Numbered from the stretch's first letter, positions 3,685 through 64,000 are shown. The stretch: 64,000 nt of DNA from Pirellulales bacterium (GCA_049840575.1 JASGKV010000010.1:1633-65632), one strand, 5' to 3'. Made by a program: numbers and translations. Notes: a model not told the origin generated them from the sequence alone.

Positions 3685-6600
3685 TCACCCGCCCGACGCG
3701 CCTTTTTTGAACGCGTCGTAGATGTTGCGGTAGTCGCCAGGCGGGGCGGTGCGGCGGCTTTCGCGGTTGCCGCGTTGCGCGTCGTCGGTCGCGCCTTCGG
3801 CGGCCGAGCGCGATGTTTGCGGCGGACGCAGCCCCAGGTTGCGCAGCCGTTCTTGCAACGCCTTGGATGCGGTCTTGCCGTTCGCGCCGGGTTGTTGCGC
3901 GTTTTGGTTCAACTCTTCCCAACGACGCAGGAATTTCTTGGCGTCGTCCTGCGACCAACCGAGCTTGTCGAGCAGGTCTTGATCGACTTGGCCTTTTTTC
4001 ACTTGGCTGCGCAAATCGTCCAGCACCAGGTCCATCGCCTTCTTCGCGTACCGCGCGTCGGCTTCGTCGACCTTCGTGCCGCCGTCGTCGACGGCGTCAG
4101 GCGGAGCTTGATCGTCGTTCCCGTTGCGCAGTCCGCCGCCGCCATGCCCCGGGGCGTTGCCCGAGCCGGTCGGGTTCTTGCCTTGGCCGGAAGACGGACG
4201 ATCGCCGGCGGCTTTGCCCGACTTGTCGGCGGTTTGCGGATGCGGATTTTTTTGACCGGCGTCGTTCTTGGCGAGTTCTTGATCGACGTTCTTGCCGGTC
4301 TTGTCGGAGGGTTGTTTTCCTGCCCCGGGCTGTTTGCCCGCGCCTTGTTTTTCGCCCGAGCCTGCGCCGGTCTTGTCGCCGGAGTGCGCCGTTTTTCCGG
4401 CGGCTTCTTTTTTATCGCCGGCCTTCGCGCCGGTTTCGCCGTCGCCCTGTTCGTTGGCCGGTTTGCCCCCTTGGTCGGCGGCGGTGTTCGATCCGGCCGC
4501 CCCTTTGCCGGCTTGGTTCTTGGATTGACCGCCCCCCTTCTTTCCACCGCCGTCGCGATCGCCCCCTTGGTCGCCTTGCGAGTCCGAGTCGTTTCCTTTG
4601 CCGCTGGCGTTTTCGGGATCGTTCTTTTTCTCTTCGGCATTCCCCTTCGACGCGTCGCCTGCCGGTTTCGATTTGCCTTCTTGCTGGGTCTTCGGCGGGC
4701 CGTTCGCGCCGCCGGACTTGTCCGAGTTTTTGCCGTCCTGGTGTTCGGGCGCGGTGTTCCGATTCGGCTCGCCGGCTTTGCCGTCGCTCTTTTCGGGGGA
4801 TTTTTCGCCCGCCTTATTCCCAGATTCTTTCATACCGGGCTCCGGCTTGTCGCCCGCGTTCGGCTTGCCCGTTTCGTCGCCGGGTTGTTTGCCCTGCGCG
4901 TCGTCCGCGTTTTTGCCCGGTTCGTTTTTGCCCGGTTCGTTTTTGCCGGGGTCGTTTTGCGCAAGTTCATTGCGACCGGGGTCGCCGGTTTTGGATTTGT
5001 CACCGGCCTTGTCGTTCGGAGATTGTTTAAAAGCGCCCGACTTCGCGGCATCGTCGCCGGGTTCGTTTTTGCCCGTTGGATTTTTTCCGGCGTCGTTCTT
5101 TCCAGTGTCGCTTTTACCCGCGTCATTCTTAGCGGCGTCGTTCTTGCCGCCGGAATTGCCGGCGTCCTTGTTCGGCGAATCGTTTTTGTTTTCGGCGTTA
5201 GCTTGGCCGTTCGGTTGTTTGCCGTTTTGCTCGGGAACGTTCTTGCCGACTCCTTCGTTCTTCTGTGCGTTCTTCCCGTCGGTGTTCTTGCCGTCCTGGT
5301 TTTTTCCGTCGGCGTTGTTCTCGTTGCGCTGCGCGTTGGTCGGTCGCTCGTCGTTCTTACCGCCGGCGGGAGAGGGATTGCCCCCCTTCGGCGGCGTGTT
5401 CTCCGGCGTCTTCCCTTTGTCGCGTAAGTGTTCGAGCATCTTTTCGGCCGCGGCCGCGTCGTCGGCGCCGTTGGCGTCGAGCTTCTCGCTCCGATCTTGC
5501 GGTCGACCGGCGTTCTGTTGCGCGCCGTTCGTCGGCGCGCCGCTCGACTTGCCGCGGGCGTCGTTCTCGCCGGCCGGGTCGTTGGATTGCCCGTCGTTAT
5601 TCTTGGCGGGCGAGTTTTTTTGATCGGCCTGCGGATCGCCTTGGCCGGAACTTTGGCCACCCTTTGTCGCGTCCTTCGATTGACCGCCGCTCGCGCCGTT
5701 GTTTTCATTTTTCTGGTCGCCGCCGCCGGCGTTGCCCGCTTTGCCGTCGGACTGTTTTTCGTCGTTCCGCTTCGCGTCGTTTTGCTTGCCGTCTTGTTTA
5801 TTGTTTTCACCGGACTTCGACGAGCCGTTCTCGCCCTGTTTCGGCGAACCACTTTCGCCGTTGCCGCCGGATTTGTCGTTTTGTTTTTGATCGTCGTTCT
5901 TTTGCCGACTAGGCCGTTGATCATCGTTCTTCGGTTCGTTCGGACGATCGCCCTCGGGCTGTTTTTGCTCGTTCGGGCGCGGATTACGCTCGTCGTTTTT
6001 GCCTGGATTCCGCTGAGCGCAGGATCTTGAGGGTTCTGATCCTGCCCGCCGGGCGGGTTTTGCGCCGGATCGCGTTGTGTCGGATCTTGCGGGTTTTGGT
6101 CGCGGTTGGGATTCCCGCGTTGCTCGTTCGGACGCGATTTCGCGCTTGGGTCGCCGTCGGCGTTTCGCGGATCGCCGGCGTTGGGTTGCGGCTGCTCTTT
6201 GTTGTTGGCGTCGCCCGCTTGGTTTTGACCGCCGTTGCGCGGGTCCTGCGGGTTTTGATCCGGATCGTTTTTCGCCAGCGGATCGTTCTTGTCGTTTCGC
6301 GGATCGGTTTGGGATTCGATCACACGCAACTTGCGTTCGGCCGTGGTTTTGACGTTCGGCGCGGGAACTTTGTTGTCGATCGCTTCGGCGTAATAGTTCA
6401 CCACGTCGCCGACCTTCAAACGCAGGTCGGCCGGTGTGAACTTGACTTTCGTCGTGAAGTTGCCCGCATGCGCCGCGTTGGCGGGAAAGACGGCGAGGTT
6501 CTTGCGAAACGCGGCCGCTTCGCCGTTCATGCCGACGAGCGCGACCGAGGTCAACGCAAAGTCCGGATCGAATGCGCGGACTTCGAACGTGATCTCGCGA

Positions 6601-7975
6601 TCCACCGGCACGGCGATTTCAGCGGATGTGGGGGCCAGCAGTTCGACGACCGGCTCTTCGTCGCGAATCACTTTGATCGTGTGGCGGAGCGGCTCCGGAT
6701 TTTCCGCGCCATTGTTCGCGCGGAAGCGCAATACGTAGCTCTCGAACTCGGGCGAACTCCGCTTGTTCGCATCGGCGAAACCGAGCGTCCATTGGCCCGA
6801 CGCGGTCTGTTCACGCGCGGACAACGGAATACGTTTGGTCTTGTTCTTCTCACCGCGCAAGTCGATCCAGGCTTGCTTGACCGCCTGGTTGGCGTTCGCC
6901 CGGACGATGACGGTCGTCCCTTCGAGCGCGGTCACGTCGCCGCCGTCGGTGCGTGTTTCCGGCGGTAACTTGGTGTAAGCGGGAAAGCGGTATTCGATCC
7001 GTTCGACCGCGATATACGGCGCGGCTTGCACGTCGACGCGAAATTCCTGCGAACGCGCGTCGCCGGCGAGAATCGTATAGACGATATCCTGCTGCAAGCC
7101 GGCCGTTTCGACCGCGGGCTTGGCTTGGCCGGCGGCCGGCGGTTCGGGCAGTACGGCCGCATACTTGCCGTCGGTTCCGCGCGGCATCGACACCGCGCGA
7201 TCGCGAATTTGTTGATCGGCCGTCGAATAGAGCAGGGTAGGGGACTCGCCTTCGGCCAGACCGTCGATCACGGCCGCGACGGACAACGACTTGCCGCGGA
7301 AGATCGACGTCGTGCCCGGCGTCACTTCGACGATCCGCACGCGCGTCGGCGCGGTCAGATCGCTCCACGGAACGATCACCCGCGCGACGCTGGGGAACGG
7401 GTTCTTGGGCGAGAAGATGAAATACAACGCGAAGACCGCCAACAGCCCGACCAGGACGTAGCCGCGCTGAATGATCGCGCGCGATCCACGGCGTGATCAA
7501 TCCGAACGTCGCTCACGCCTGCGGCCGCCTGTTGCGATAACGCATCGAGCACGGCGGGCGGCAACGCGACGCGATCGTCGCGCAACGAGAGATAATTGAT
7601 CAACGAATTTTTGAGCGACGGCTTGGTCTCTTCGATCGAACGCGCGGCGTAGAACGGATTCACCTTATAGATCAACAGCGGCACGATCGAGCGCCACAGA
7701 TAATAGGCCGCGCCCGCGACCATCGCGCTCCACAGGATCAGACGTCCCCACATCGGAAGACCGTCTGAAACGACCCAATGATCGATGAGGGCGGCCAGCA
7801 GCAGAAAGCCCAACACGCCGACGACCAAGCCCAACGTGCGTTGCGCCAGCTCGACGCCTTTGACCTGGGCCCGCGCACGACGGAGTTGCGACTCGATAAG
7901 GTCGGTCCGTCGTTTCGCTTCCGGCGCGATCGGCGCCGTCGCGGTGGGTTCGAGCGTTCCCGCATTTCCGGCCAT
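3685..7975 (-). CDS. Very large membrane protein with a long Lys/Asn/Asp/Gly/Pro/Gln low-complexity region (DUF4175-like architecture; frame breaks near 7480 and 6020)
   Basis: The N-terminus has two hydrophobic helices (LGLVVGVLGFLLLAALI, LILWSAMVAGAAYYL) and a third after the break. A folded region of about 400 aa follows. Then come hundreds of residues of GKN/DGK/NPQDP-type repeats with no Met, Val or Leu. The tail is conserved-looking (AMDLVLDDLRSQVKKGQVDQDLLDKLGWSQDDAKKFLRRWEEL). Confidence 0.6.
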
Positions 7976-8318: not shown

Positions 8319-9170
8319 ATGTCGAAACCGCACGCCAATCGCCGGTCTCTCCGTCTGGTCGGAGCGTTCGTCGCCATGATCATGGCGTACGGCGTCGCCT
8401 CGGCCGATCAGGCGGAAGAAAAACGCGAAGCGGCGCGGATCAAACAAGCCGAGCAAGCGTCGACCAAGGCCAAGCAATCGGCCAACGACGCGGATCAAGC
8501 GTTCAAGCTCGCCGTGCGAAACGCGCGATCGGCCGAAGATCGGCGCGACGCCGCGTCCAAAGCGATCCAACGCACGCGGGACGAAGCCGAGCGCGCGTTG
8601 GGCGAATCGACCGGCTTGCCGGCGGCGATTCGCGACGTCGCCGCCGCCGATGCGGAATTCGAACGGATCGCCGCGCCGATTCGCGCGCGGGTGCGAAAAT
8701 CGGACGAGTACCTCCGCGCACAAGAAGCGGCGACTGTCGCGCGAGCCGAACGGGAACGCCTGACGGCCGACGTCGAACTCGACGACGCGGCGTTGGCCGC
8801 CTTGATTACGGAGACCGGAAAACTCCTGCGTCGTCCGGACGAACTCGAAACCGCCGCGATCAACGCCGACCCGACTGTCGCCGCGCAACGCAAGACGCTG
8901 GAAGCGGCCCAACGCCGCGCGGCGGAGTTGCGCGCGAAGGTTAAATCGCAAATCGACGATGCGCCCGGCTTGAAACGCGCCGTGGCCGAACTCCGAGACG
9001 CCGAGCAAGACCTGAACGCGAAACGGACCGAAGCGACGAAACGCCGCGCTGTCGCGCTCGCGCAACGAACGCAAGCGCAGCAAGCCGCGAATCATCTCGC
9101 CGACGTCAAATCAGCCGACCGCCGCGACGACGCGAACGACAATAAGAAAAACGCAAAGAAGAAAAAGTAA
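8319..9170 (+). CDS. Secreted coiled-coil protein, Ala/Arg/Glu-rich with a Lys-rich tail
   Basis: Start chosen at MSKPHANRRSLRLVGAFVAMIMAYGVASA (signal-peptide-like). The rest has heptad-like charged sequence and ends in KKNAKKKK. Confidence 0.6.
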   Translation: MSKPHANRRSLRLVGAFVAMIMAYGVASADQAEEKREAARIKQAEQASTKAKQSANDADQAFKLAVRNARSAEDRRDAASKAIQRTRDEAERALGESTGLPAAIRDVAAADAEFERIAAPIRARVRKSDEYLRAQEAATVARAERERLTADVELDDAALAALITETGKLLRRPDELETAAINADPTVAAQRKTLEAAQRRAAELRAKVKSQIDDAPGLKRAVAELRDAEQDLNAKRTEATKRRAVALAQRTQAQQAANHLADVKSADRRDDANDNKKNAKKKK

Positions 9171-54568: not shown

Positions 54569-54642
54569 GTTCCGGTCCCCGACCGAGACCGAATCGCCGA
54601 AACGCATAAAGACAACAAAAACCCCGACGAACGCGTCTGGAC

Positions 54643-55039
54643 CTATTTGGCTGCCGCGGCTTTGACGAGCGCCGTGAACGCCGCCGCGTCGAGCGCGTCA
54701 TCTTCGCGCAGATCGATCGCGCGGCGGACGTTTCCCTCCAACCCCGCGTTGAACAATCCCGCCGGATCGGGCAGCTTCGCCCCCTGGGCGAACGTCAGCT
54801 TGACGTACGTCTTATACGTCTCGCCGGTGCAGAGGATGTTGACCTTGCCGTCGGCCGGCAACGACCACACCGGCACGCCGGCCGGGTTCGTCGGCTTGAT
54901 CCATTTCCGTTCCTCCACCACGCCGGGCACCGCTTTTTGAATCAGCGTCCGTACGCGACCCAGCGTCGCGGCGCCAATCGGCGTTCGAGGGTTTCGGCGC
55001 GGCGGCTTTCGTCTTCGGAGTCGGTTTGGATTTCGCCAT
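54643..55039 (-). CDS. DUF1801 (YdhG-like) protein with a Lys/Pro-rich N-terminus (frame break near 54985)
   Basis: MAKSKPTPKTKAAAPKP joins IGAATLGRVRTLIQKAVPGVVEERKWIKP...TYVKLTFAQGAKL. Confidence 0.7.
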
Positions 55040-55040
55040 T

Positions 55041-55556
55041 TCACATCTTCTCCAGCGGCAGCTTGCTCGCTTGTTTGATCCAGTCGCAGAATTGTTTTTC
55101 GTCCAGTACGTGATCCTCGCGGATGTCGAAATAGCGAACGTTTTTCTGTTTCGACTCGCCCGGCGGCAGCGGCTTCAGCGAAGTTCCTTGGAAGAACGAG
55201 ACCTTCAGGTACTTATCGAAGCAGTGGTAGCCCATGAACCAGCCTTGGTCTTCGAAACCGTAGAACGGCGTGTTCCACTTCACCGCTTTGGCGACGTTCG
55301 GCACCGTCTTGACGATCAACGCGTCGATCCGCCGGCACAGCTCGCGCTTCCAGCCCGGCACGGCCGCGATGTAGGCCTGCACCGGCGCGTCGCCGTAGCC
55401 CTTGGCGATCTGCGGGTTGCCTCCCGAAAGCAGCACCACGCCGTCGGCGTTGGGCTTCAGCGGCGGGCGATCCATTTTCGGCTTGGTCGCTTTCTGGGCG
55501 GTTTTTTTGGCCGTTTTCTTCACAGGCTTGGATGCTTTGGAGACTTTTTTCGCCAT
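55041..55556 (-). CDS. DUF1801 (YdhG-like) protein with a Lys-rich N-terminus
   Basis: MAKKVSKASKPVKKTAKKTAQKATKPK, then IDALIVKTVPNVAKAVKWNTPFYG and YLKVSFFQG. Confidence 0.75.
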   Translation of the reverse strand: MAKKVSKASKPVKKTAKKTAQKATKPKMDRPPLKPNADGVVLLSGGNPQIAKGYGDAPVQAYIAAVPGWKRELCRRIDALIVKTVPNVAKAVKWNTPFYGFEDQGWFMGYHCFDKYLKVSFFQGTSLKPLPPGESKQKNVRYFDIREDHVLDEKQFCDWIKQASKLPLEKM

Positions 55557-55618
55557 GAGTTTCAACTCGAAGCAGTTGGACTTTCGGAAGAACGCGTGAT
55601 TGAACGACTCGACCAATT

Positions 55619-56023
55619 TCAAAATGTACGTTGGCCGGGAAAGCTCCAGCCACTCGGCAATTGCGGGAAATGGCCCCACATCTCCCATCTCGCTTCTATG
55701 TTCGCGGCCGGACGTGATGCCAATCCCCACTCGGGTGGATCGGGAAAACCGAACCATGCGTGTTGGATGAGGATTAGATCCTCATGATCGTATGTCGTGA
55801 CGAATTCGACTTCGTTACCGCTGAACCAATCGCGATCGTATCCCAGAATTCCATTGTTCGGAAAATCATTCAAATCTACCTTCAGCCAGACCAATGGCTT
55901 CATCGCTCTTTGTTGAAAACCCGTTTTCTGACGCTCGACCTGAACACCCTTCGCGTCCCATGGAATTGGTTCCCATTCGGGATCGACATCGTGACGCATT
56001 GAGTCGCTCTGAGGAAAGCGCAT
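55619..56023 (-). CDS. Hypothetical protein (Trp-rich; lower-GC stretch by eye)
   Basis: 134-aa ORF with coding-like composition and no recognised family. Confidence 0.45.
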   Translation of the reverse strand: MRFPQSDSMRHDVDPEWEPIPWDAKGVQVERQKTGFQQRAMKPLVWLKVDLNDFPNNGILGYDRDWFSGNEVEFVTTYDHEDLILIQHAWFGFPDPPEWGLASRPAANIEARWEMWGHFPQLPSGWSFPGQRTF

Positions 56024-56047
56024 TCCTATTGGGTTGATCGCGCTATT

Positions 56048-56305
56048 TTATGACGCCGAAGATTTCGAAAACAGTCGTCCGATCGCCGCCCCTTTCCACA
56101 GCCACAGCCCGGTGACGAGCACGATCGGCAGAAAGATGAAGCGAAAATTGTCGCGGTACTGCAACGTCTCCTCCGGCGGGCCGTAGATGTACCCGACCAA
56201 CGTCAGGCCGAAGAGGATGTGCGTCCAACGCAGGATGGAACGTTTGGTGGAGGCGGTCATGGAGATCATCAAGTTGAATAAAGCGAAGTGCAAAAAGGGC
56301 ATCAC
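56048..56305 (-). CDS. Small membrane protein (2-3 TM segments)
   Basis: 85 aa with hydrophobic segments FALFNLMISM, HILFGLTLVGYIY and FIFLPIVLVTGLWLW. Its start overlaps the upstream gene's end. Confidence 0.45.
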   Translation of the reverse strand: MMPFLHFALFNLMISMTASTKRSILRWTHILFGLTLVGYIYGPPEETLQYRDNFRFIFLPIVLVTGLWLWKGAAIGRLFSKSSAS

Positions 56306-56895
56306 GCGTCGAGCGGAACGCTCGTGCGTTCGAAATCGGTGTAGGGATACACTCCGTTGCGTTTCAGAAGAGTCAATAACCGTTCAGCGCCGTGCTCGTG
56401 CTTGAAAGCCAGCTCGTCTTCCGTGATCCCCAGACACAGCCGCAGTTCGCAATCCTGCTCGAACAGACGGAAAGTCCCATACGTCGCGAACACGAACCCT
56501 TTAATCGCCGACGTCTCGGGGGTCGCCGAGCCGATGTCCATCGACTGCTCCGCATGGATCGGATTCTCGATCGCATAAGGCGCCGACTGCGAGAGAATGC
56601 GTGGCCCCCAATCGAGCCGCGTCCGGTGAACGATCATCAGCTCGTAGTTCGTCTCCGACTCTTCCGGTTTACCCGTTAGATCGGCGGTGACGTATACCAT
56701 GCCGTCAAGATGTTTCGAAAACGCCAAAACGTCGGCGTTCCCGCCCAGCGCGAGCGGGAGGGACGAATGAAACACCTCGTCATCGGACGGTCCGAGAACC
56801 CGCTCGAGCGCTGCCGATCTGGCGTCCCAGACTTCTTGCCAATTATCACTCTCCGCTTCGTCGCTATTCATCGTTCGGCCCCTTTGCGAGAACAT
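56302..56895 (-). CDS. SUFU-like (suppressor-of-fused family) protein, immunity-protein-like
   Basis: Size and pattern (ALERVLGP...VFHS..P.ALGG..DV.AF...YVT.DL; ELMI; GITEDELAF) resemble bacterial SUFU-domain proteins. Called from memory only. Confidence 0.45.
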   Translation of the reverse strand: MFSQRGRTMNSDEAESDNWQEVWDARSAALERVLGPSDDEVFHSSLPLALGGNADVLAFSKHLDGMVYVTADLTGKPEESETNYELMIVHRTRLDWGPRILSQSAPYAIENPIHAEQSMDIGSATPETSAIKGFVFATYGTFRLFEQDCELRLCLGITEDELAFKHEHGAERLLTLLKRNGVYPYTDFERTSVPLDA

Positions 56896-56901
56896 CGTCG
56901 C

Positions 56902-57342
56902 TCAGTGTTTCAAAACCGCTTCCAACCGATTCAAATTCTGTTCGTTCGCGTCGCCGATGAAGGCGCGAATTTTCGCGGCCGTCTCGGCGTTTTCGAATTC
57001 TTGCACCCAAGACAGATGCGTCCGCTCGGCTTGTGGGGTCAGCGTGATCGTCAGCGTGAACCGAGGGGCGACCACGTGGTCGATAACGATGCGGCGGTCC
57101 GGCTCGATCACGCGGAACACGCTCTCGTTCTGGTAGTTCGCCCCATTCGGCCCGTGCATCGTGTAAACCCACCGCCCGTCGTTACGGAATTCGAACAGAT
57201 CGAACGTGTTGGTGAACCCATCCGGCCCCCACCACGCGGCCAACGTCTCGGGCCGCGCGAACGCGGCGAAAATCGCGGCCGGCGAAGCGGCGATCACACG
57301 TTCGGTACTCAAGGCGGCGTCCGAGGGATTTTCGATGGTCAT
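56902..57342 (-). CDS. SRPBCC/AHSA1-family protein
   Basis: ERVIAASPAAIFAAFARPETLAAWWGP and VVAPRFTLTITL are typical of Aha1-like START-fold proteins found downstream of ArsR regulators. Confidence 0.8.
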   Translation of the reverse strand: MTIENPSDAALSTERVIAASPAAIFAAFARPETLAAWWGPDGFTNTFDLFEFRNDGRWVYTMHGPNGANYQNESVFRVIEPDRRIVIDHVVAPRFTLTITLTPQAERTHLSWVQEFENAETAAKIRAFIGDANEQNLNRLEAVLKH

Positions 57343-57486
57343 GGATCTCTTCCTTCTTCTCACTGGGGAACGAAGCACGTTGAAAAAACGTCGTCCGACG
57401 CGGTCGGTCGCAGACGACGTCGTTTCGTCGATCGGGCAACAGCGAATTCGACACGCTCCCGCCCCTGTACCGTGTTTCGCCAAAAG

Positions 57487-57948
57487 TTAAGGCGTTCCGC
57501 CGCGCGCGACGACGTCCTGTAATTTTTCCAGCATCCCGGCCCAGCCGTAGGTCGCTCCTTGGAACGCTTGGTCGGCGTACGGCTGCGTAAAGTCGAACCC
57601 GGCGTGTTCGAACAGCAACCGCGTTCCCGCGCCGTCGGGCAGCAGCGTGAAACTGACGCGCGTGTCGGTCACCGGGCCGCCGGCGGTCCAGGTGAAGACC
57701 AGTCGCCCGCCGGCGTCGCCGCTTTGGTCGCGGGGCGGATCGCACTCCAGCACTTCGCACCGGACGGTCAGGCCGTCGAATTTCATGGCCGGTTTGGGCG
57801 GCACTTGGAACGTAAACGCGTGGCCGACGCGCAGGCTCGAAGTCGTTGGGGAACATCCATTCGGCCAGCGCCGCGCGATCGGCGATCGCGCGCAAACCTG
57901 GTCACGCGACGCGTCGAAACGGACTTCGCGTTGAATCGTTTTGTTCAT
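57487..57948 (-). CDS. SRPBCC/AHSA1-family protein (two close frame breaks near 57895 and 57840)
   Basis: MNKTIQREVRFDASRDQV, then AIADRAALAEWMFPNDFEP in another frame, then RVGHAFTFQV...LLFEHAGF. Its start overlaps the arsR stop (ATGA). Confidence 0.75.
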   Translation of the reverse strand: MNKTIQREVRFDASRDQVCARSPIARRWPNGCSPTTSSLRVGHAFTFQVPPKPAMKFDGLTVRCEVLECDPPRDQSGDAGGRLVFTWTAGGPVTDTRVSFTLLPDGAGTRLLFEHAGFDFTQPYADQAFQGATYGWAGMLEKLQDVVARGGTP

Positions 57949-58277
57949 GACTTGCTCTTTTCGGCCACCAGCGTTCGCAGTTTGTTCAGTCGCTCGTCCC
58001 AAAACCGTTCGTATTGCGCTAACCAGTCGCGGACCGGGCCGAGATTGTCCGGCACGAACCGGTAACGCCGCTCGCGGCCATGCCGCTGCTCGGTGACGAG
58101 TCCGGCGTCGAGCAAGATCCGCAGATGTTGCGAGACGGCCGGTCGACTCATCTCGAAGTGCGCGGCCAACGCCGCGACGCCGCTCTCGCCGGCGGTCAAC
58201 AGATCGAGCATCCGCCACCGCGCCGGATGACCGATCGCCGCGAAAACATCCGACCCGCGTTGTGAAGTAGCGACCAT
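57945..58277 (-). CDS. ArsR/SmtB-family transcriptional regulator
   Basis: FAAIGHPARWRMLDLL...VAALAAHFEMSRPAVSQHLRILLDAGLV is a winged helix-turn-helix. The frame is intact. Confidence 0.9.
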   Translation of the reverse strand: MVATSQRGSDVFAAIGHPARWRMLDLLTAGESGVAALAAHFEMSRPAVSQHLRILLDAGLVTEQRHGRERRYRFVPDNLGPVRDWLAQYERFWDERLNKLRTLVAEKSKS

Positions 58278-58333
58278 GCGGCCGAGTATAGGTAAGGAAT
58301 TACTTACGTGTCAAGCGGACGGATTTTTCACAC

Positions 58334-58522
58334 GGGTGCCCCAGGATCTCGATCCTGGGTCGCGCAGCGACAAGAAGCCGCGTAGACGGGAATTTTTTAC
58401 TGCTGGGCAGAGCGAGCGAAGAGTAGTCATCGCTTCGCGGTCCAGAGCGACTCGGAAAGCATCGTTCCGCGGCTTGAGCGTCTTGTCGCTGCGCGACCCG
58501 GGATCGAGATCCCGGGACACCC
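58334..58522. repeat. Palindromic MITE/REP-like element, copy 1
   Basis: Arms of about 50 bp, GGGTGCCCCAGGATCTCGATCCTGGGTCGCGCAGCGACAAGAAGCCGCG and its near-perfect reverse complement at 58468-58522, flank about 85 nt. The arms contain sub-hairpins (CCAGGA-TCTCGA-TCCTGG and GTCGC-GCA-GCGAC). Confidence 0.75.
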
Positions 58523-58532
58523 TGCGAGTGTC

Positions 58533-59034
58533 TTACCGTGATTCGTATTCGCGGCGTAATTTCTTCGCGCCATACTGCCCGCGTTGACAAAAATCGCAGC
58601 CGCACGGTTTGCGGCCATGCGCACCGGGCCAATAGCGCCAGCCGACGACTTGCGGCAGTCGGCGAATCTTATGAATTTCGGACGCGTCGATCTTGCGCGG
58701 AACGATCACCTCGAAACCTTCGGGCACGGTCGCGCGCAGCAACACGTCGACCGCTTCCGCGGCGGTCATCTTGCGGTGCGCATCGCGATAACGGGCCAGC
58801 CAGACGGACTGCACAGTCGGGAATGCGAAAATAAACTCCGCACAGCGGCCCCGCGTTTCTCCGCTTGAGCTCGCGCAGCCATTGATGCGAGATCACGAAA
58901 CTCGGCACGACGGGAAGCCCAAAAATGCCCGGTTCCGGAAGATGGCGTTTACGCAATCGATGGATGCCGTTACGACGCAGCGCATCGACGACGTTTTCCG
59001 TTGCGAGATGTACGAACATCGCCATCGCAATCAC
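58533..59034 (-). CDS. Conserved-looking hypothetical protein with a C-terminal Cys cluster (frame break near 58815)
   Basis: FVISHQWLRELKRR...GVYFRIPD joins SVWLARYRDAHRKMTAAEAV...PQVVGWRYWPGAHGRKPCGCDFCQRG. It lies between the two palindromic elements. Confidence 0.55.
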
Positions 59035-59096
59035 ACCGAGAGCAGACCTCTAGCCTCGAAAGAGAAATCGACACGATTGAATCCCCCAGGTTCGCC

Positions 59097-59283
59097 GGGT
59101 GCCCCAGGATCTTGATCCTGGGTCGCGCAGCGACGAGAAGCTCATGCTCACGGGGGATTGCCAAAGAGACCGTCGAAAGAATCGAAATGACAACTTCACG
59201 AGTTGTCGCCTCGCGCAAAGCATCGTCCCGCGGTTTTAGCCTCTTGTCGCTGCGCGACCCGGGATCGAGATTCCGGGGCACCC
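59097..59283. repeat. Palindromic MITE/REP-like element, copy 2
   Basis: Same arm sequences as copy 1 with a few substitutions (GGGTGCCCCAGGATCTTGATCCTGGGTCGCGCAGCGACGAGAAGC ... CTCTTGTCGCTGCGCGACCCGGGATCGAGATTCCGGGGCACCC). The central part differs. Confidence 0.75.
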
Positions 59284-59293
59284 TGCCCTGGCG

Positions 59294-59807
59294 TTACTTG
59301 CTCGCGGCGTCGCCGAAGCTTTCCAACACGTTCGTCAACTCGTCCAAAAATCCGGTCGGGAGGTTCTTGGGCGTCTTGAGATCCACGTGCAGATGCGTGT
59401 CCAGGCGTTTCGAGTACGGGGCGGAGACCGCCTGCGTGAAGTAACGCTTGTCCCACATTTGCGGCAACGCGGCCATCCCTTCGTACGGGCCGGGCACGAT
59501 CGTCACGTCGCCGACGATCCCCTTGGGATTGGGGCCGCGCTGTTTCGACGCGTCTTGCCAATCGCCGGTGAGGAATTGGTCATGAATCCAAAACTCGCGC
59601 ACCGTCGAACTCGAAGTGAATCACGTCGTCCTGCAACTCGCACTTCGCCTTGGGGTAATGCTTGATCACGACCTTTTCGATCCGGGCCCGCAATGCCTGA
59701 CGATCGAGCGTCGGCTTAGCGGCCGGCGCGTCGTCCGCCGCGGTGACGATGGTCGAACACCCCCAGACGAGCCAACACAGCAGCAGGGAAATTCGTGCGG
59801 TACGCAT
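59294..59807 (-). CDS. Secreted or lipoprotein-like hypothetical protein (frame break near 59600)
   Basis: MRTARISLLLCWLVWGCS signal/lipobox-like N-terminus. The two ORF pieces join at VIHFEFDGA / REFWIHDQF. Confidence 0.55.
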
Positions 59808-59991
59808 CGGGACCTCGTTCATTGTGGAGAAAACCGACCGAACTCGCCGTCTAGCGAGCCGGGACGATTCTAACGCACGGCGAGGACGCGCTGGGTCAGC
59901 GACTGCGCAACGTCGACCGCGAGCGGAAAAACACGCGTTTAGCGGAACAGAAAAACGCCGAAATTTTGGCGATATATCGGCGGACCAGGCC

Positions 59992-60020
59992 TTGACACAG
60001 CGACCGTAAACAAGTATACT
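59992..60020 (+). promoter_or_regulatory. Near-consensus sigma70-type promoter (TTGACA, 17 nt, TATACT) facing the tandem-repeat locus
   Basis: TTGACA at 59992-59997, a 17-nt spacer, and TATACT at 60015-60020. It sits in an AT-rich island unusual for this window. No CDS follows on the plus strand. Confidence 0.5.
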
Positions 60021-60120
60021 TATTTACATTAATCCAAATGTCGTTGCTGGAAATTACATCACTGGGCGGACGGCCGGGAGCCCCCTGAGCATGTTCGTAC
60101 GGCGATGATGCCCAATGCTC

Positions 60121-60627
60121 AGAGGACTGACGTCCCCCGCTCAGAAAAAAGAAAAGTCGCAGGGCACGTGATCGTAACGCTCGTAACGCTCGCGCAGTGA
60201 ACTTGGGGCGTTTCGGCGGGGCAGGAAACGGAGGACTGACGTCCTCCGCTCATTGGTAAAAGAAAAACGGTGTGCTCGAAACGATCGTTTCGCTCGTAAC
60301 GCTCGCACAGTGAAACTGGGGTGTTTGGCGAGAACGGCGCAAACCGAAGATCGAATGGATCGGCTCAAATAACGAAAACCGTCGCGTCACCGACGATCGT
60401 TTCGCTCGTAACGCTCGCGCAGTGAAAATGGGGCGTTTGGTCAGACGGCGCGAACCGGAGACTGACGCCCTCGCCACACTCGTGACAGAAAAACTCCTGC
60501 GGTGCCCGCGATCGCAACGCGCGTTTCGCTCGTAACGCTCGCGGCTTTCCTACTTACTGAAAACTGAATCCTGAAAACTGAAAACTGAAAACTCACTCGC
60601 AACGCTCGTAACGCTCGCGCAGTGAAG
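60121..60627 (+). repeat. About 4.5 tandem copies of a noncoding unit of about 113 bp
   Basis: The core GCTCGTAACGCTCGCGCAGTGAA occurs at 60179, 60292, 60404 and 60604, with a truncated copy at 60528. The flanking parts of the unit are also related: the GGAGGAC-TGAC-GTCCTCC hairpin, an AAAAGAAAA run, a CGATCG-centred palindrome, and TGGGGCGTTTGG. Confidence 0.85.
60557..60591 (+). repeat. Heptanucleotide microsatellite (CTGAAAA) x5, one variant copy
   Basis: CTGAAAA CTGAATC CTGAAAA CTGAAAA CTGAAAA lies inside the fourth unit of the tandem array. Confidence 0.85.
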
Positions 60628-60673
60628 ATAGATAACCCGAATTCGGAGGTCAGATGAGAAAACCGAATCGCGA

Positions 60674-61152
60674 CTATAAGAATTGCTGATACGCGGCCAC
60701 GGCCAGGACGTCGCAGCGGTCGTTTTCCGGGTGGCCGCTGTGGCCGGCGACGCGGGTGTACCTTAGCCGGTGTTTGGCGACCAGTTCGTCCAGTTCCTGC
60801 CAGAGGTCGACGTTTTTGACTTCGCCCCAACCGTTTTTTTCACGTCGCCGCCAGCCGTTCCGTTTCCAACCGGCCATCCATTCACTGAGGCCTTTGCGAA
60901 CGTATTCGCTGTCGGTGAACAATTCGACCGCCGTCGGACGCTTGAGCATTTCCAGCCCACGCACGACGGCTTGGAGTTCCATGCGATTGTTGGTGGTCAG
61001 CTTTTCGCCGCCGGAACGTTCGATTTCCTTGCCGCTGGACGGGTGACGCAAGATAAACGCCCAACCGCCGGGGCCCGGATTTCCGCTGCAGCCGCCGTCG
61101 GTGTACAACTCGACGGCGGGCAGCGCGTCGTGGGTTGAGAAGCGTCGGCCAT
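60674..61152 (-). CDS. rnhA: Ribonuclease HI (start uncertain; possible frame break near 61140)
   Basis: ELYTDGGCSGNPGPGGWAF, TNNRMELQAV, LFTDSEYV and GHSGHPENDRCD. The only nearby ATG (61152) is in a different frame from the catalytic domain. Confidence 0.85.
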
Positions 61153-61335
61153 GTGTGGTGCGTTGCGCAAGTGTCCGTTCCGGCGAGAAGGACGGGATTT
61201 TAGCAGGTGTTTTCCGTGCGGCGTAGTGTCCGACGCGTCGCGCGGCCTGGGCGAGCGATGCCGGTTTTGGATAATGAAGACGTTCACAAGACGATATCGG
61301 GCCGGTTTCAAGATTCCCGCGGAGCATCATCACGG

Positions 61336-62176
61336 ATGGCGATTCGGTTGTTGGCGTTGGATGTGGACGGGACGTTGGTCGATCTTGAGATCGGATTCCG
61401 TCCGCCACCACGGATGCGCTCGCGCACATCGCACAGGCGGGCGTATCGATCATGATCGCCACGGGCCGGCGTTACAGCCGAGCGTTTCCGATCGCCGCGC
61501 GCAGTGGGGTCGACTTTGCCGGTCGTCACGGCCAGCGGCGCGTTGATCAAGCACTCGCCGGGACACACGACGCTGTTTCGGGCCGAGTTCGATCAACGCG
61601 TGTTGGCCGAGATGCTGACGTTTTTCGCCGAACAAGGTCACGAGCCGGTCCTTTACACGGACAGCTACGGACGCGGCTACGATTTTCACCTGGGCCACCC
61701 TGCCCCGCGAACGCCGGAACTGCGCGAGTTTCTAGGACGAAATTCCGACGCGATCCGGATCGACGAGCGAATGCACGTCGATCCGCCCGAGGGCGTGTTC
61801 GCGGGATTCGTGATCGGCACGCGCGACGCGATGTCGGCCCTGGCGGCCGAGCTGGATCGTCGCTGGCCCGATGCGTTGTACGTGCATGTGATCCGCAGTC
61901 CGCGGTATTTGGGATTTATGTGCGATCGCGCCGGTCGGCGTCAGCAAGTGGTCGGGCGTACGACACGTGGCCGCTCTGCTGGGAGTCGCCGATCACGAGA
62001 TCTCCGCGGTCGGCGACGACGTGAACGACCTGCCGATGATCGTCGGCGCAGGGCCTGGGCGTGGCGATGGGGAACTGGCGCCGGACGACGTCCAGGCCGC
62101 GGCCGATCGCGTCACAGGCCGCCTGGACGAAGACGGCCTGGTCCGCGTAGCGGAGTGGATTTTGGATGCGAGCTAA
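61336..62176 (+). CDS. HAD-superfamily Cof-type phosphatase (frame breaks near 61385, 61510 and 61925, plus a locally shifted stretch at 62050-62075)
   Basis: LLALDVDGTL, IMIATGRRY and AVGDDVNDLPMI. GLGVAMGN is readable only in a shifted frame between two nearby indels. Confidence 0.8.
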
Positions 62177-62424
62177 AACGTCGCCTGGCCTCAGCCGCGA
62201 TCGATTCTCAATTGAAGCGATCGCACCGAGTCACAGGCCGGTTCGGCGCATCCCAAAGCCTCCGGAGCCCCGGCTCCGGTGGAACGTTACCGATCACGCG
62301 CAAGTACGACATTTCCGAGGTTCCAGCGTGCGTTTCGCCCGAAATTCTTGCTGGACGCATTTCCGGAGAAGGTTCATAATAAAGTGGTCGGGCCGATAGC
62401 GACGATCCGGCGGAGCTTGCCGAA

Positions 62425-62727
62425 ATGTGGGAAACTTTGAGCGATCTGTGGAACAACTCGATGTTTCGGGTCGTGTCCGGTATCGCGATTACGTCGGCCT
62501 TGGTCGCGTTGGGATATAAGCTGTTGGCAAGGTTGCGCGGTCTTAAGGATGAAGACCAGGTTTCGGAGACCGAGATGCTGTTGAATTTCCGGGAAATGGC
62601 TTCCCAAGGTGACCTCAGCAAGCAGGAATACCGAATTATAGAGTCGTTGCTGGTGAAGCCTCGGGACGAGGAAAGTCGCCGGCGACCGAAGTCGCGAACG
62701 TTCGACGCCACGGAGGGACTTCCGTAA
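62425..62727 (+). CDS. Small single-TM protein
   Basis: 100 aa. Hydrophobic helix VVSGIAITSALVALGY, then a charged tail with DLSKQEYRIIESLL. Confidence 0.4.
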   Translation: MWETLSDLWNNSMFRVVSGIAITSALVALGYKLLARLRGLKDEDQVSETEMLLNFREMASQGDLSKQEYRIIESLLVKPRDEESRRRPKSRTFDATEGLP

Positions 62728-63020
62728 ATCGCGCGTTTTCGCGGGGTTCGTTATGCTTGCGGAGCGTGTCGCCAGGATGCCGGCACTCGTCGCGAAAAAC
62801 CTGAACAAATGTACGCGAACGATTTCGCGGTCCGAAACGTACTGTTTCTGACCACTCGGTCGTAAGCCGTTCGAAACCAGAGGACAGGGATGCCCCTCTT
62901 GGCCGTGATTCGTAACACGGCGCCTTCGAACGTTTCAGACTCCTGACGAAACACACCGACGATTCTCCCCAGGGCGATGAAGCGCAACGGAGAGCGGAAC
63001 CCTTAAGGAAGACCCCAGGC

Positions 63021-64000
63021 ATGCCCACAGGTCGTGACGTCAACATCGGTCGTCGTGGTACCGGAACCACGAAACGGAACGCGTTCTGTTCGTTCTGTCG
63101 CAAAAGCTATCGCGACGTCGGACCCGTTGGTCGAAGGACCGGGCGACGTCTACATCTGCGGCGAGTGCATCGAACTCTGCCAGTCGATTCTGGATCAAGA
63201 ACGTACGTCGCCGCGGCACCAATGGCAAACAACTGTTCACCCGCGTCCCGTCTCCCGCGCGAAATCGAAGACGCAGCTCGACGAATACGTGATCGGGCAA
63301 GAGCACGCCAAGAAAGTGCTCAGCCGTGGCGGTCCACAGCCACTACAAACGCCTGAACTTGGCGGCCGAAGGTTCGAGCGACGTCGAAATCGACAAGTCG
63401 AACATCATGCTGGTCGGTCCGACCGGCTCGCGGCAAAACGCTGCTCGCCCGCACGTTGGCCGAATCCTGAACGTGCCGTTCGCGATCGGCGACGCCACGA
63501 CGCTGACCGAAGCGGGTTACGTGGGCGAAGACGTCGAAAACCTGCTGCTGAAGCTGCTGCACGCGGCCGACTTCGACATGGAAGCGGCGCAGCGGGGCGT
63601 GATCTACATCGACGAGATCGACAAGATCGGCAAGACGAGCCAGAACGTCTGGATCACTCGCGACGTCTAGCGGCGAAGGCGTGCAACAGGCGTTGTTGAA
63701 GATGCTCGAAGGGACCGTCGCCAACGTGCCGCCGCAAGGGGGCCGCAAGCATCCCGAGCAGCAGTACATCCAACTCGACACGAGCAATATTCTGTTCATC
63801 TGCGGCGGAACGTTCGTCGGGATCGAGAAGATCATCGCCAAGCGATTGGGCAGTAAGACGATCGGCTTCGGCACGCAAAGCGGCGATTCGCCAAGAAGGA
63901 ACTCGGCCGAGATGTTGCCGCAGGTCACGACCGAAGACATCTTCGAATTCGGCATGATTCCCGAGCTGTCGGCCGGTTGCCGATCATCTCGCCGCTCAAC
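63021..64000 (+). CDS. clpX: ATP-dependent Clp protease ATP-binding subunit ClpX (3' end outside the window; several frame breaks)
   Basis: Zinc finger CSFCRKS...[10 protein letters not shown], then [71 protein letters not shown] and [21 protein letters not shown], spread over three frames. Confidence 0.9.

Follow-up and report, generated by a model that had tools for sequence, protein, structure and literature searches.

In the sponge RNAs CsrB/RsmZ and CrcZ, numerous copies of one short element are interspersed with hairpins along a promoter-driven non-coding RNA (ncRNA). Direct repeats with a period of 11-43 bp, a short palindrome and an adjoining AT-rich segment and promoter are found in sopC of F, parC of R1 and iterons, and the units of a variable-number tandem repeat (VNTR) are in general alike along their whole length. 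Here we describe a locus of a Pirellulales bacterium that resembles each of these systems in part, an array of tandem units of roughly 113 bp (60121-60640) preceded by a promoter-like site (59992-60020) in a stretch of 64,000 nt (GCA_049840575.1, JASGKV010000010.1:1633-65632; referred to as the window). The locus fits no known sequence family and is best filed as an orphan promoter-associated tandem non-coding repeat. Among the described repeat loci, NsiR1 of Nostoc/Anabaena PCC 7120 is a small RNA of ~60 nt that is present in 12 tandem copies beside hetF (PMC9045159; Ionescu et al., 2010, cited there), with identical central copies, diverged peripheral copies and a promoter of its own, carrying a DIF1 motif, for each copy (PMC9045159), while the mycobacterial interspersed repetitive units (MIRUs) of Mycobacterium tuberculosis are a minisatellite family dispersed over many loci (PMC3635867). 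Furthermore, inverted repeats in promoters are known binding sites of ArsR/SmtB-family repressors (PMC8790569).

Similar to NsiR1, the array consists of head-to-tail direct repeats in one intergenic region whose adjacent gene can be overlapped in antisense. However, it has a single upstream promoter and none per unit, only one terminator-like site compared to 2.5 expected, and no relatives that we could find. With MIRU and other VNTR loci, which stem from slippage and recombination, it shares tandem units of tens to ~100 bp, a location in non-coding DNA and a non-triplet period, but unlike a MIRU it occupies a single locus in 64 kb and shows a strong contrast between core and flanks. By analogy, NsiR1 appears to be the nearest functional and a MIRU-type minisatellite the nearest structural counterpart. 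The sponge RNAs are matched by the repeated element and by A-rich linkers that are single-stranded in the predicted fold, but the element is longer here (23-53 nt), has no demonstrated GGA-in-loop pattern or other protein-binding motif of a known type, and has no match in Rfam. Likewise, direct repeats, palindrome, AT-rich segment and promoter are shared with iterons and plasmid centromeres, whereas the units recur every 113 bp, only one of them has an intact palindrome, and no rep or par gene was found among the neighbours scanned (rnhA, a HAD hydrolase, an ArsR protein, an AHSA1-like protein, hypothetical proteins, a histidine kinase and PriA). As in ArsR/SmtB-regulated promoters (PMC8790569), a palindrome lies over the core promoter, and an ArsR/SmtB gene with a palindrome-bearing promoter is found nearby; known targets of these repressors are, in contrast, protein-coding metal or stress genes, and the putative operators at this locus are of 8+8 and 11+11 bp rather than of the classical 12-2-12 form. 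The best explanation that we can offer, which is put forward tentatively and may well be wrong, is that the locus is a lineage-specific gene for a repressor-gated plus-strand ncRNA made of repeated modules.

A constrained core in a non-coding tandem array

The promoter region and the array comprise the following features:

59992-60020, plus strand: sigma-70-type promoter-like site, TTGACA (59992-59997), 17-nt spacer, TATACT (60015-60020)
60006-60027, no strand assigned: 22-bp near-perfect palindrome GTAAACAAGTATACTTATTTAC, operator-like, spanning the -10 hexamer and the predicted start
60028-60120, plus strand: leader from promoter to array, containing a 16-codon open reading frame (ORF) and an imperfect inverted repeat
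60121-60230, plus strand: unit 1, degenerate hairpin AGAGGAC-TGAC-GTCCCCC, A-rich run, core at 60172-60201 (nhmmer E = 6e-28)
60231-60343, plus strand: unit 2, perfect hairpin with 7-bp stem, A-rich run, 16-bp palindrome, core at 60285-60314
60344-60455, plus strand: unit 3, weaker and different hairpin GATC...GATC, A-rich run, CGTCG/CGACG hairpin, core at 60397-60426
60456-60555, plus strand: unit 4, degenerate hairpin, A-rich run, one extra 9-mer, core at 60521-60540
60556-60593, plus strand: heptanucleotide microsatellite (ACTGAAA), period 7, 5.4 copies, score 62, 87% matches
60594-60640, plus strand: partial unit 5, full core at 60597-60626, followed by the palindrome CCGAATTCGG

Four head-to-tail units and a partial fifth, beginning at 60121, are organized around a 30-nt core, of which five copies lie within 60172-60626 (starts at 60172, 60285, 60397, 60521 and 60597). 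The resulting core spacings of 113, 112, 124 and 76 nt are the periods that a first-pass annotation of the window, made from the sequence alone, had proposed. The core is built of tandem 9-mers of the form CGnnnCGCT, and the same ordered set of 9-mers returns in each unit; one additional 9-mer explains most of the 124-nt period, and in the core region of unit 1 TCGTAACGC is repeated 2.3 times. Allowing one mismatch at most, the 23-mer GCTCGTAACGCTCGCGCAGTGAA is found four times, compared to 0.00 occurrences expected (100 shuffles), and 16 nt (CGCTCGTAACGCTCGC) are invariant across all five core copies. In unit 4 the core stops after ~20 nt, past CGCTCGCG, and is followed by the microsatellite, which interrupts this unit as annotated earlier; the fifth core resumes 76 nt on and ends 47 nt from the stop codon of rnhA.

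Each unit had been described as a hairpin, an A-rich run, a CGATCG-centred palindrome and a core. These parts are indeed present, but both the hairpin GGAGGAC-TGAC-GTCCTCC (60230-60247) and the palindrome CGAAACGATCGTTTCG (60277-60292) are perfect in unit 2 only and degraded in the other units. The density of GATC in the window (9.9 per kb) led us to reject any significance of CGATCG or of Dam methylation sites.

Conservation is distributed very unevenly over the units. In units 1-3 a 48-column core is 81-94% identical, compared to 45-60% for the remainder (Fisher p = 5e-3 to 1e-8). The array thus has the head-to-tail non-coding units of a VNTR but lacks the similarity of the units over their whole length. 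Together with the 16 invariant positions, this contrast between core and flanks gives the pattern of a constrained element and not that of uniform decay. As judged from the alignment of the units, such unevenness is expected neither from uniform neutral decay of an old duplication nor from a recently expanded VNTR, which suggests that the core is held by something, either selection or localized gene conversion.

No ORF of at least 40 aa is present on the plus strand between 60009 and 60756. Since the period is not a multiple of 3, the ORFs of the minus strand are echoes of the repeat in which the reading frame of the core shifts, in agreement with the first-pass annotation, which had seen neither a plus-strand coding sequence nor any other kind of minus-strand ORF. 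The short ORFs of the plus strand have in common only the core-derived residues IV(T/S)LVTLAQ. A coding repeat was rejected on account of the non-triplet period and of stops that follow the core in every frame.

The promoter, its twin and a candidate repressor

The promoter-like site upstream of the array matches 11 of 12 consensus positions, with coordinates, hexamers and 17-nt spacer as annotated earlier, and lies in a short AT-rich island (GC 0.31 at 60003-60060 compared to 0.60 window-wide). A sigma-70-like scan of 59500-61000 found this site upstream of the whole array and no promoters of individual units. Transcription would start at about 60027-60029. Across the 64-kb window only two sites reach 11 of 12 matches, compared to ~0.07 expected under a Markov model, and the palindrome GTAAACAAGTATACTTATTTAC, which is 93% complementary, occurs once in the window where none is expected. 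The second site, a twin with identical hexamers, is found 1.7 kb from the array in front of an ArsR/SmtB gene:

57945-58277, minus strand: ArsR/SmtB-family repressor gene (HTH_5 E = 1.9e-12; NF033788 81 bits, cut-off 55)
58285-58314, minus strand: twin promoter, TTGACA, 18-nt spacer, TATACT, the second 11/12 site in the window

The TATACT of the twin ends 7 nt ahead of the ArsR ATG, so that the corresponding mRNA would be leaderless. Since the twin sits at the place expected for a real promoter, the odds that the array promoter is real go up as well, and the original promoter call is strengthened accordingly. A 16-bp palindrome, GTAAGGAATTACTTAC (58292-58307), lies between the -35 and -10 hexamers of the twin, and each of the two promoters overlaps a palindrome that begins and ends in the manner GTAAR...YTTAC. 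These sequence features suggest that the array promoter is probably genuine and operator-bearing. They also make the ArsR/SmtB gene a candidate regulator of both promoters. It encodes the only DNA-binding protein among the array neighbours scanned and its putative operator is unlike the core; its candidate role would be the control of array transcription and not the binding of the repeats themselves. The earlier statement that the array has no obvious partner gene thus holds with respect to Rep and Par proteins among the neighbours scanned, whereas the ArsR/SmtB gene may represent such a partner at the level of regulation. Downstream, an AHSA1/SRPBCC-family gene (57487-57960) overlaps the ArsR gene, and the pair looks like an operon.

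Between promoter and array, the 16-codon ORF of the leader (60038-60088) has no Shine-Dalgarno sequence, and the imperfect inverted repeat (60072-60092 / 60115-60135) pairs with the beginning of unit 1.

A proposed repeat-built RNA and its rival explanations

In the proposed mechanism, a repressor would bind the 22-bp palindrome over the -10 hexamer and the start and thereby gate the promoter. From ~60028 a plus-strand transcript would extend across four full modules and one partial module, each of which combines a stem-loop, an A-rich linker that is left exposed, a further hairpin that varies between units, and a core of 30-53 nt that is under constraint. The function would reside in the core, whose repetition would provide several identical binding sites per RNA, as in a sponge or decoy; alternatively, sibling RNAs might be formed if the transcript is cut up. 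With no intrinsic terminator found on the plus strand, transcription would proceed into rnhA from its 3' end, in the convergent direction. As gatekeeper, the ArsR/SmtB repressor is the most probable candidate, in which case the RNA would appear when the signal of the repressor is present. In the predicted plus-strand fold the A-rich linkers are unpaired at 0.52-0.89 compared to 0.42 overall, and the cores are average. A more far-reaching version, in which an ArsR/SmtB stress or metal repressor would control both its own leaderless operon and a repeat-built ncRNA (4-5 copies of a 23-53-nt element, antisense into rnhA) that acts as a sponge or sibling-RNA regulator of modular build and is confined to one uncultured lineage of the Pirellulales, appears doubtful to us.

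Several results weigh against a repressor-gated plus-strand RNA. Consensus folds of the units showed no meaningful covariation on either strand (terms of -0.19 and +1.06 kcal/mol), with double changes in only 1-2 pairs among four units, a comparison of low power that is limited to internal copies. The folding z of the units ranged from -0.3 to +1.6 except for unit 2, the sole unit with a z near -2 (on both strands), no structure was common to the units, and the plus-strand region as a whole folded no better than shuffled sequences (z = +0.28). In all four units, G.U pairs make hairpin 1 more stable on the minus strand (-15.4, -19.2, -7.3 and -9.1 kcal/mol, compared to -5.7, -15.0, -4.5 and -6.8 kcal/mol on the plus strand), which hints at the other strand; the two substitutions in the hairpin of unit 1 give G.U pairs on the minus strand only. 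The missing plus-strand terminator, on a terminator scan of the array region, belongs here as well, as does the disruption of neighbouring genes (HAD hydrolase and secreted protein), which indicates that the region may be decaying. The pattern GTAAR-N4-14-YTTAC occurs three times in the window compared to 0.37 expected, two of the three on the two promoters, but because it was chosen after both palindromes had been viewed this statistic is partly circular and serves as a lead only. Finally, no homologue of the array was found in any genome, metagenome, viral, plasmid, phage or protein collection searched, so that tests of conservation and covariation are confined to 4.5 internal copies. A family of structured or processed small RNAs, as envisaged in the first-pass annotation, therefore receives no positive support, given the absence of Rfam hits and covariation and unit z values near 0 except in unit 2.

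The searches covered sequence families as well as sequence collections. Rfam gave no hits for the whole window at gathering thresholds and, at E values up to 5, three chance microRNA hits in 58000-62000 that all lie outside the array, so that the comparison to all of Rfam proposed at the outset yielded no array match. The exact 24-mer core had no hits in 185,579 species-representative genomes and none in JGI metagenomes, and these scans yielded no second genome of the lineage. The invariant 16-mer gave at least 100 single hits in genomes of unrelated phyla, with the matches listed extending over no more than ~24 nt; two Pirellulales-affiliated hits that we inspected (L043 and L045) were unrelated, and viral contigs contained single hits only. 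Two 12-mers placed 90-120 nt apart retrieved 16 unrelated, apparently mostly coding repeats from metagenomes, and blastn against plasmids and phages found no match. When a unit profile was run with nhmmer on every locus fetched, the only scores came from loci that had been chosen by means of the 16-mer. Minus-strand ORF echoes, used as protein queries to stand in for arrays that gene callers had mistaken for genes, retrieved nothing related. The two repeat proteins obtained in a second such search were unrelated; one is apparently a phage tape-measure protein and the other a low-complexity ORF. Nothing array-like was present in nine related Pirellulales rnhA loci or at the locus of the homologue of the downstream gene, and the core is found nowhere else in the window. 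Among other candidates, a small RNA with targets inside the window was rejected since the core has only 10-12-nt matches there, at chance level, and integron attC sites and REP/BIME elements were rejected by eye, the cores being direct repeats that are not palindromic and lack R''/R' motifs.

The main rival, which we consider somewhat unlikely, is a functionless lineage-specific minisatellite (VNTR) that arose by slippage and unequal recombination in a variable, decaying intergenic region. The core would then be kept alike as the homology stretch for conversion between copies, and the promoter would be incidental, or its sole use would be to express the tiny leader ORF or to transcribe into rnhA in antisense. 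Such an origin is consistent with the uniqueness of the array to its contig in all searches made, its absence after rnhA in the nine related loci at what is a synteny breakpoint, the nested 7-, 9- and ~113-bp periods, the irregular unit lengths and the broken array end near rnhA. It would also fit the decayed surroundings with their repeat insertions (HAD frameshifts, the stop in the secreted protein and two copies of an element similar to miniature inverted-repeat transposable elements, MITEs) and the lack of conserved structure, terminator enrichment and per-unit promoters. However, the flanks are near saturation while the core, with its same ordered 9-mers, is not, and copies of an active VNTR are normally alike throughout; moreover, a consensus promoter with an operator-like palindrome aimed at the array is very unlikely to occur by chance. 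The first-pass annotation had held that units without conservation outside the locus would represent a plain VNTR. None was detected in the collections searched, which leans toward a VNTR, and the contrast between core and flanks opposes it. Between a regulatory RNA and a minisatellite the sequence alone cannot decide. An array of DNA sites, in the manner of iterons or centromeres or as a transcription-factor sink, in which a protein reads the 23-bp core or the 9-bp sub-repeats, is improbable in our view. The core of 23-30 bp with 16 invariant bp and direct 9-mers, the adjoining AT-rich segment and the change in sign of the cumulative GC skew near 60 kb would agree with it, and the absence of RNA structure would be no objection. 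In contrast, no Rep, Par or initiator gene that would suit the earlier iteron or centromere proposal was found among the neighbours scanned, and the array is surrounded by housekeeping genes of a chromosome. Known iterons and centromere repeats have a spacing far from 113 bp, only one unit has an intact CGATCG palindrome amid ubiquitous GATC, DnaA-box-like 9-mers are not enriched (4 compared to 4.3 expected in 64 kb), and the window holds no core outside the array. A replication origin, considered separately, was rejected on the same count of DnaA-box near-matches, none of which lies in the array.

Transcription in the opposite direction, in which the array would serve as 3' untranslated region of rnhA or as a source of small RNAs cut from that region, is likewise quite unlikely. 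On the minus strand a unit would read as core, hairpin, U-run and second hairpin, and might form stacked terminators or modules for a U-run-binding chaperone such as Hfq. The greater stability of hairpin 1 on this strand, the direction of rnhA transcription and the conversion of the A-runs into U-runs that follow the variable hairpins (weak in units 1 and 2, terminator-like in unit 3) are in line with this possibility. However, the terminator scan picks out a single one of the four units (unit 3, minus strand, 60398-60377), fewer than chance would give in the region, the term for covariation comes out positive, the z of the region (-0.96) is not significant, and the plus-strand promoter would be left without a role. 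A layout in which direct repeats, with cores of 30-53 nt separated by ~60-80 nt, come after an AT-rich, promoter-bearing leader is also reminiscent of an orphan or degenerate array of clustered regularly interspaced short palindromic repeats (CRISPR). Yet the would-be spacers are homologous, sharing hairpin and A-run with 47-63% identity 5' of the core, and the inter-core segments are 64-74% identical over 42 nt; in addition, repeat length and spacing are irregular and no Cas family was found among 27 ORFs scanned. As far as these alignments tell, the CRISPR-like possibility is extremely remote and effectively refuted by spacer homology.

If the preferred reading of a repressor-gated ncRNA is true, the locus would represent a compact regulator RNA of tandem modules under a metal- or stress-sensing repressor, and its two operators and one repressor would form a testable pair. 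The small-RNA biology of Planctomycetota is essentially unexplored, and to our knowledge, although the literature was not searched on this point, no regulatory RNA has been characterized in this phylum. If the array is only a minisatellite, it would have value as a strain marker and would show that tandem arrays can keep a core while their flanks diverge. Since nothing related was found elsewhere, no wider conclusion follows under either reading; the locus is a single-genome curiosity without relatives, which owes its interest to the constraint on the core and the link to ArsR suggested by the twin promoter.

Genomic surroundings of the array

The host belongs to the uncultured Pirellulales (Planctomycetota). 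Its best rnhA matches are 84% identical, and those that are named come from Pirellula or from metagenome-assembled genomes of Pirellulales. The array is located 3' of rnhA, which is convergent with the array promoter:

60674-61150, minus strand: rnhA, RNase HI (Pfam PF00075 RNase_H E = 5e-40), intact, 84% identity to P0001 without gaps

This Pfam match agrees with the neighbour named in the first-pass annotation, as does a signal-peptide-like ORF at 59580-59822 on the minus strand for the secreted hypothetical protein. The region of the latter (59294-59822, minus strand) is split into ORFs of 80 and 102 aa, both of which are spanned by P0123 (156 aa, 44% identity, tblastn). An in-frame stop is located near 59620, and a collection of 5.8 billion proteins contained only two homologues. 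On the other side, a Cof-type HAD hydrolase gene (61315-62167), divergent from rnhA, contains an in-frame stop and several frameshifts and is locally scrambled relative to its homologue in the closest relative (L001), and is thus either a pseudogene or affected by assembly indels. Since rnhA, ArsR and the histidine kinase gene are intact, errors would not be uniform along the contig.

Two copies of a MITE-like element of ~190 bp (58334-58522 and 59094-59286) have terminal inverted repeats of 45-49 nt that are 86-91% complementary and lie ~95-99 nt apart, with segments 90-96% identical between the copies. They flank ~570 bp with unannotatable ORFs (58533-59034), and no further copies were found in the window or in related loci. 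Upstream of the secreted-protein homologue in L157 (2760-3050), a long inverted repeat with the ends CTTTGTCATCCTGAGCGGAGCGGGGA and TCCCCGCTCCGCTCAGGATGACAAAG represents another MITE-like element, the sequence of which is unrelated to that in the window.

In several Pirellulales (L003, L121, L158 and L160 were compared), the genes for the histidine kinase, rnhA and recG lie on one strand, and recG directly follows rnhA in five related loci (three distinct arrangements), while the two closest relatives sharing the HAD-rnhA pair have other sequence after rnhA. Because related loci differ in this manner, the array is placed at a synteny breakpoint. At ~54600-61150 of the window, rnhA has no recG beside it, is inverted relative to the kinase gene and is separated from the latter by ~6 kb of small, hypothetical or repeat-rich sequence; on this comparison of gene order, the region is a rearrangement breakpoint. 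In the closest relative (L001), rnhA is followed by a gene-poor stretch with three similar promoter-like sequences (~7140-7180, 7345-7385 and 8325-8365) of the form TTGAC(A/T), 17 nt, TAGC(T/C)T, each followed by GCC.

In 2-kb bins, the GC skew of the window is mostly negative from 18 to 60 kb and positive in the last two bins (+0.045 and +0.040). Its cumulative minimum thus falls near the array, only 4 kb of sequence lying past the turn, which is probably an effect of gene orientation. No tRNA or tmRNA genes were found in 55000-64000. Far from the array, ~10 copies of a repeat with a 15-nt period (GCCCGGTTCGTTTTT-like) occupy 4900-5199 and resemble minus-strand coding sequence for pentapeptide repeats; the AT skew of the corresponding bin (4001-6000) is -0.68.

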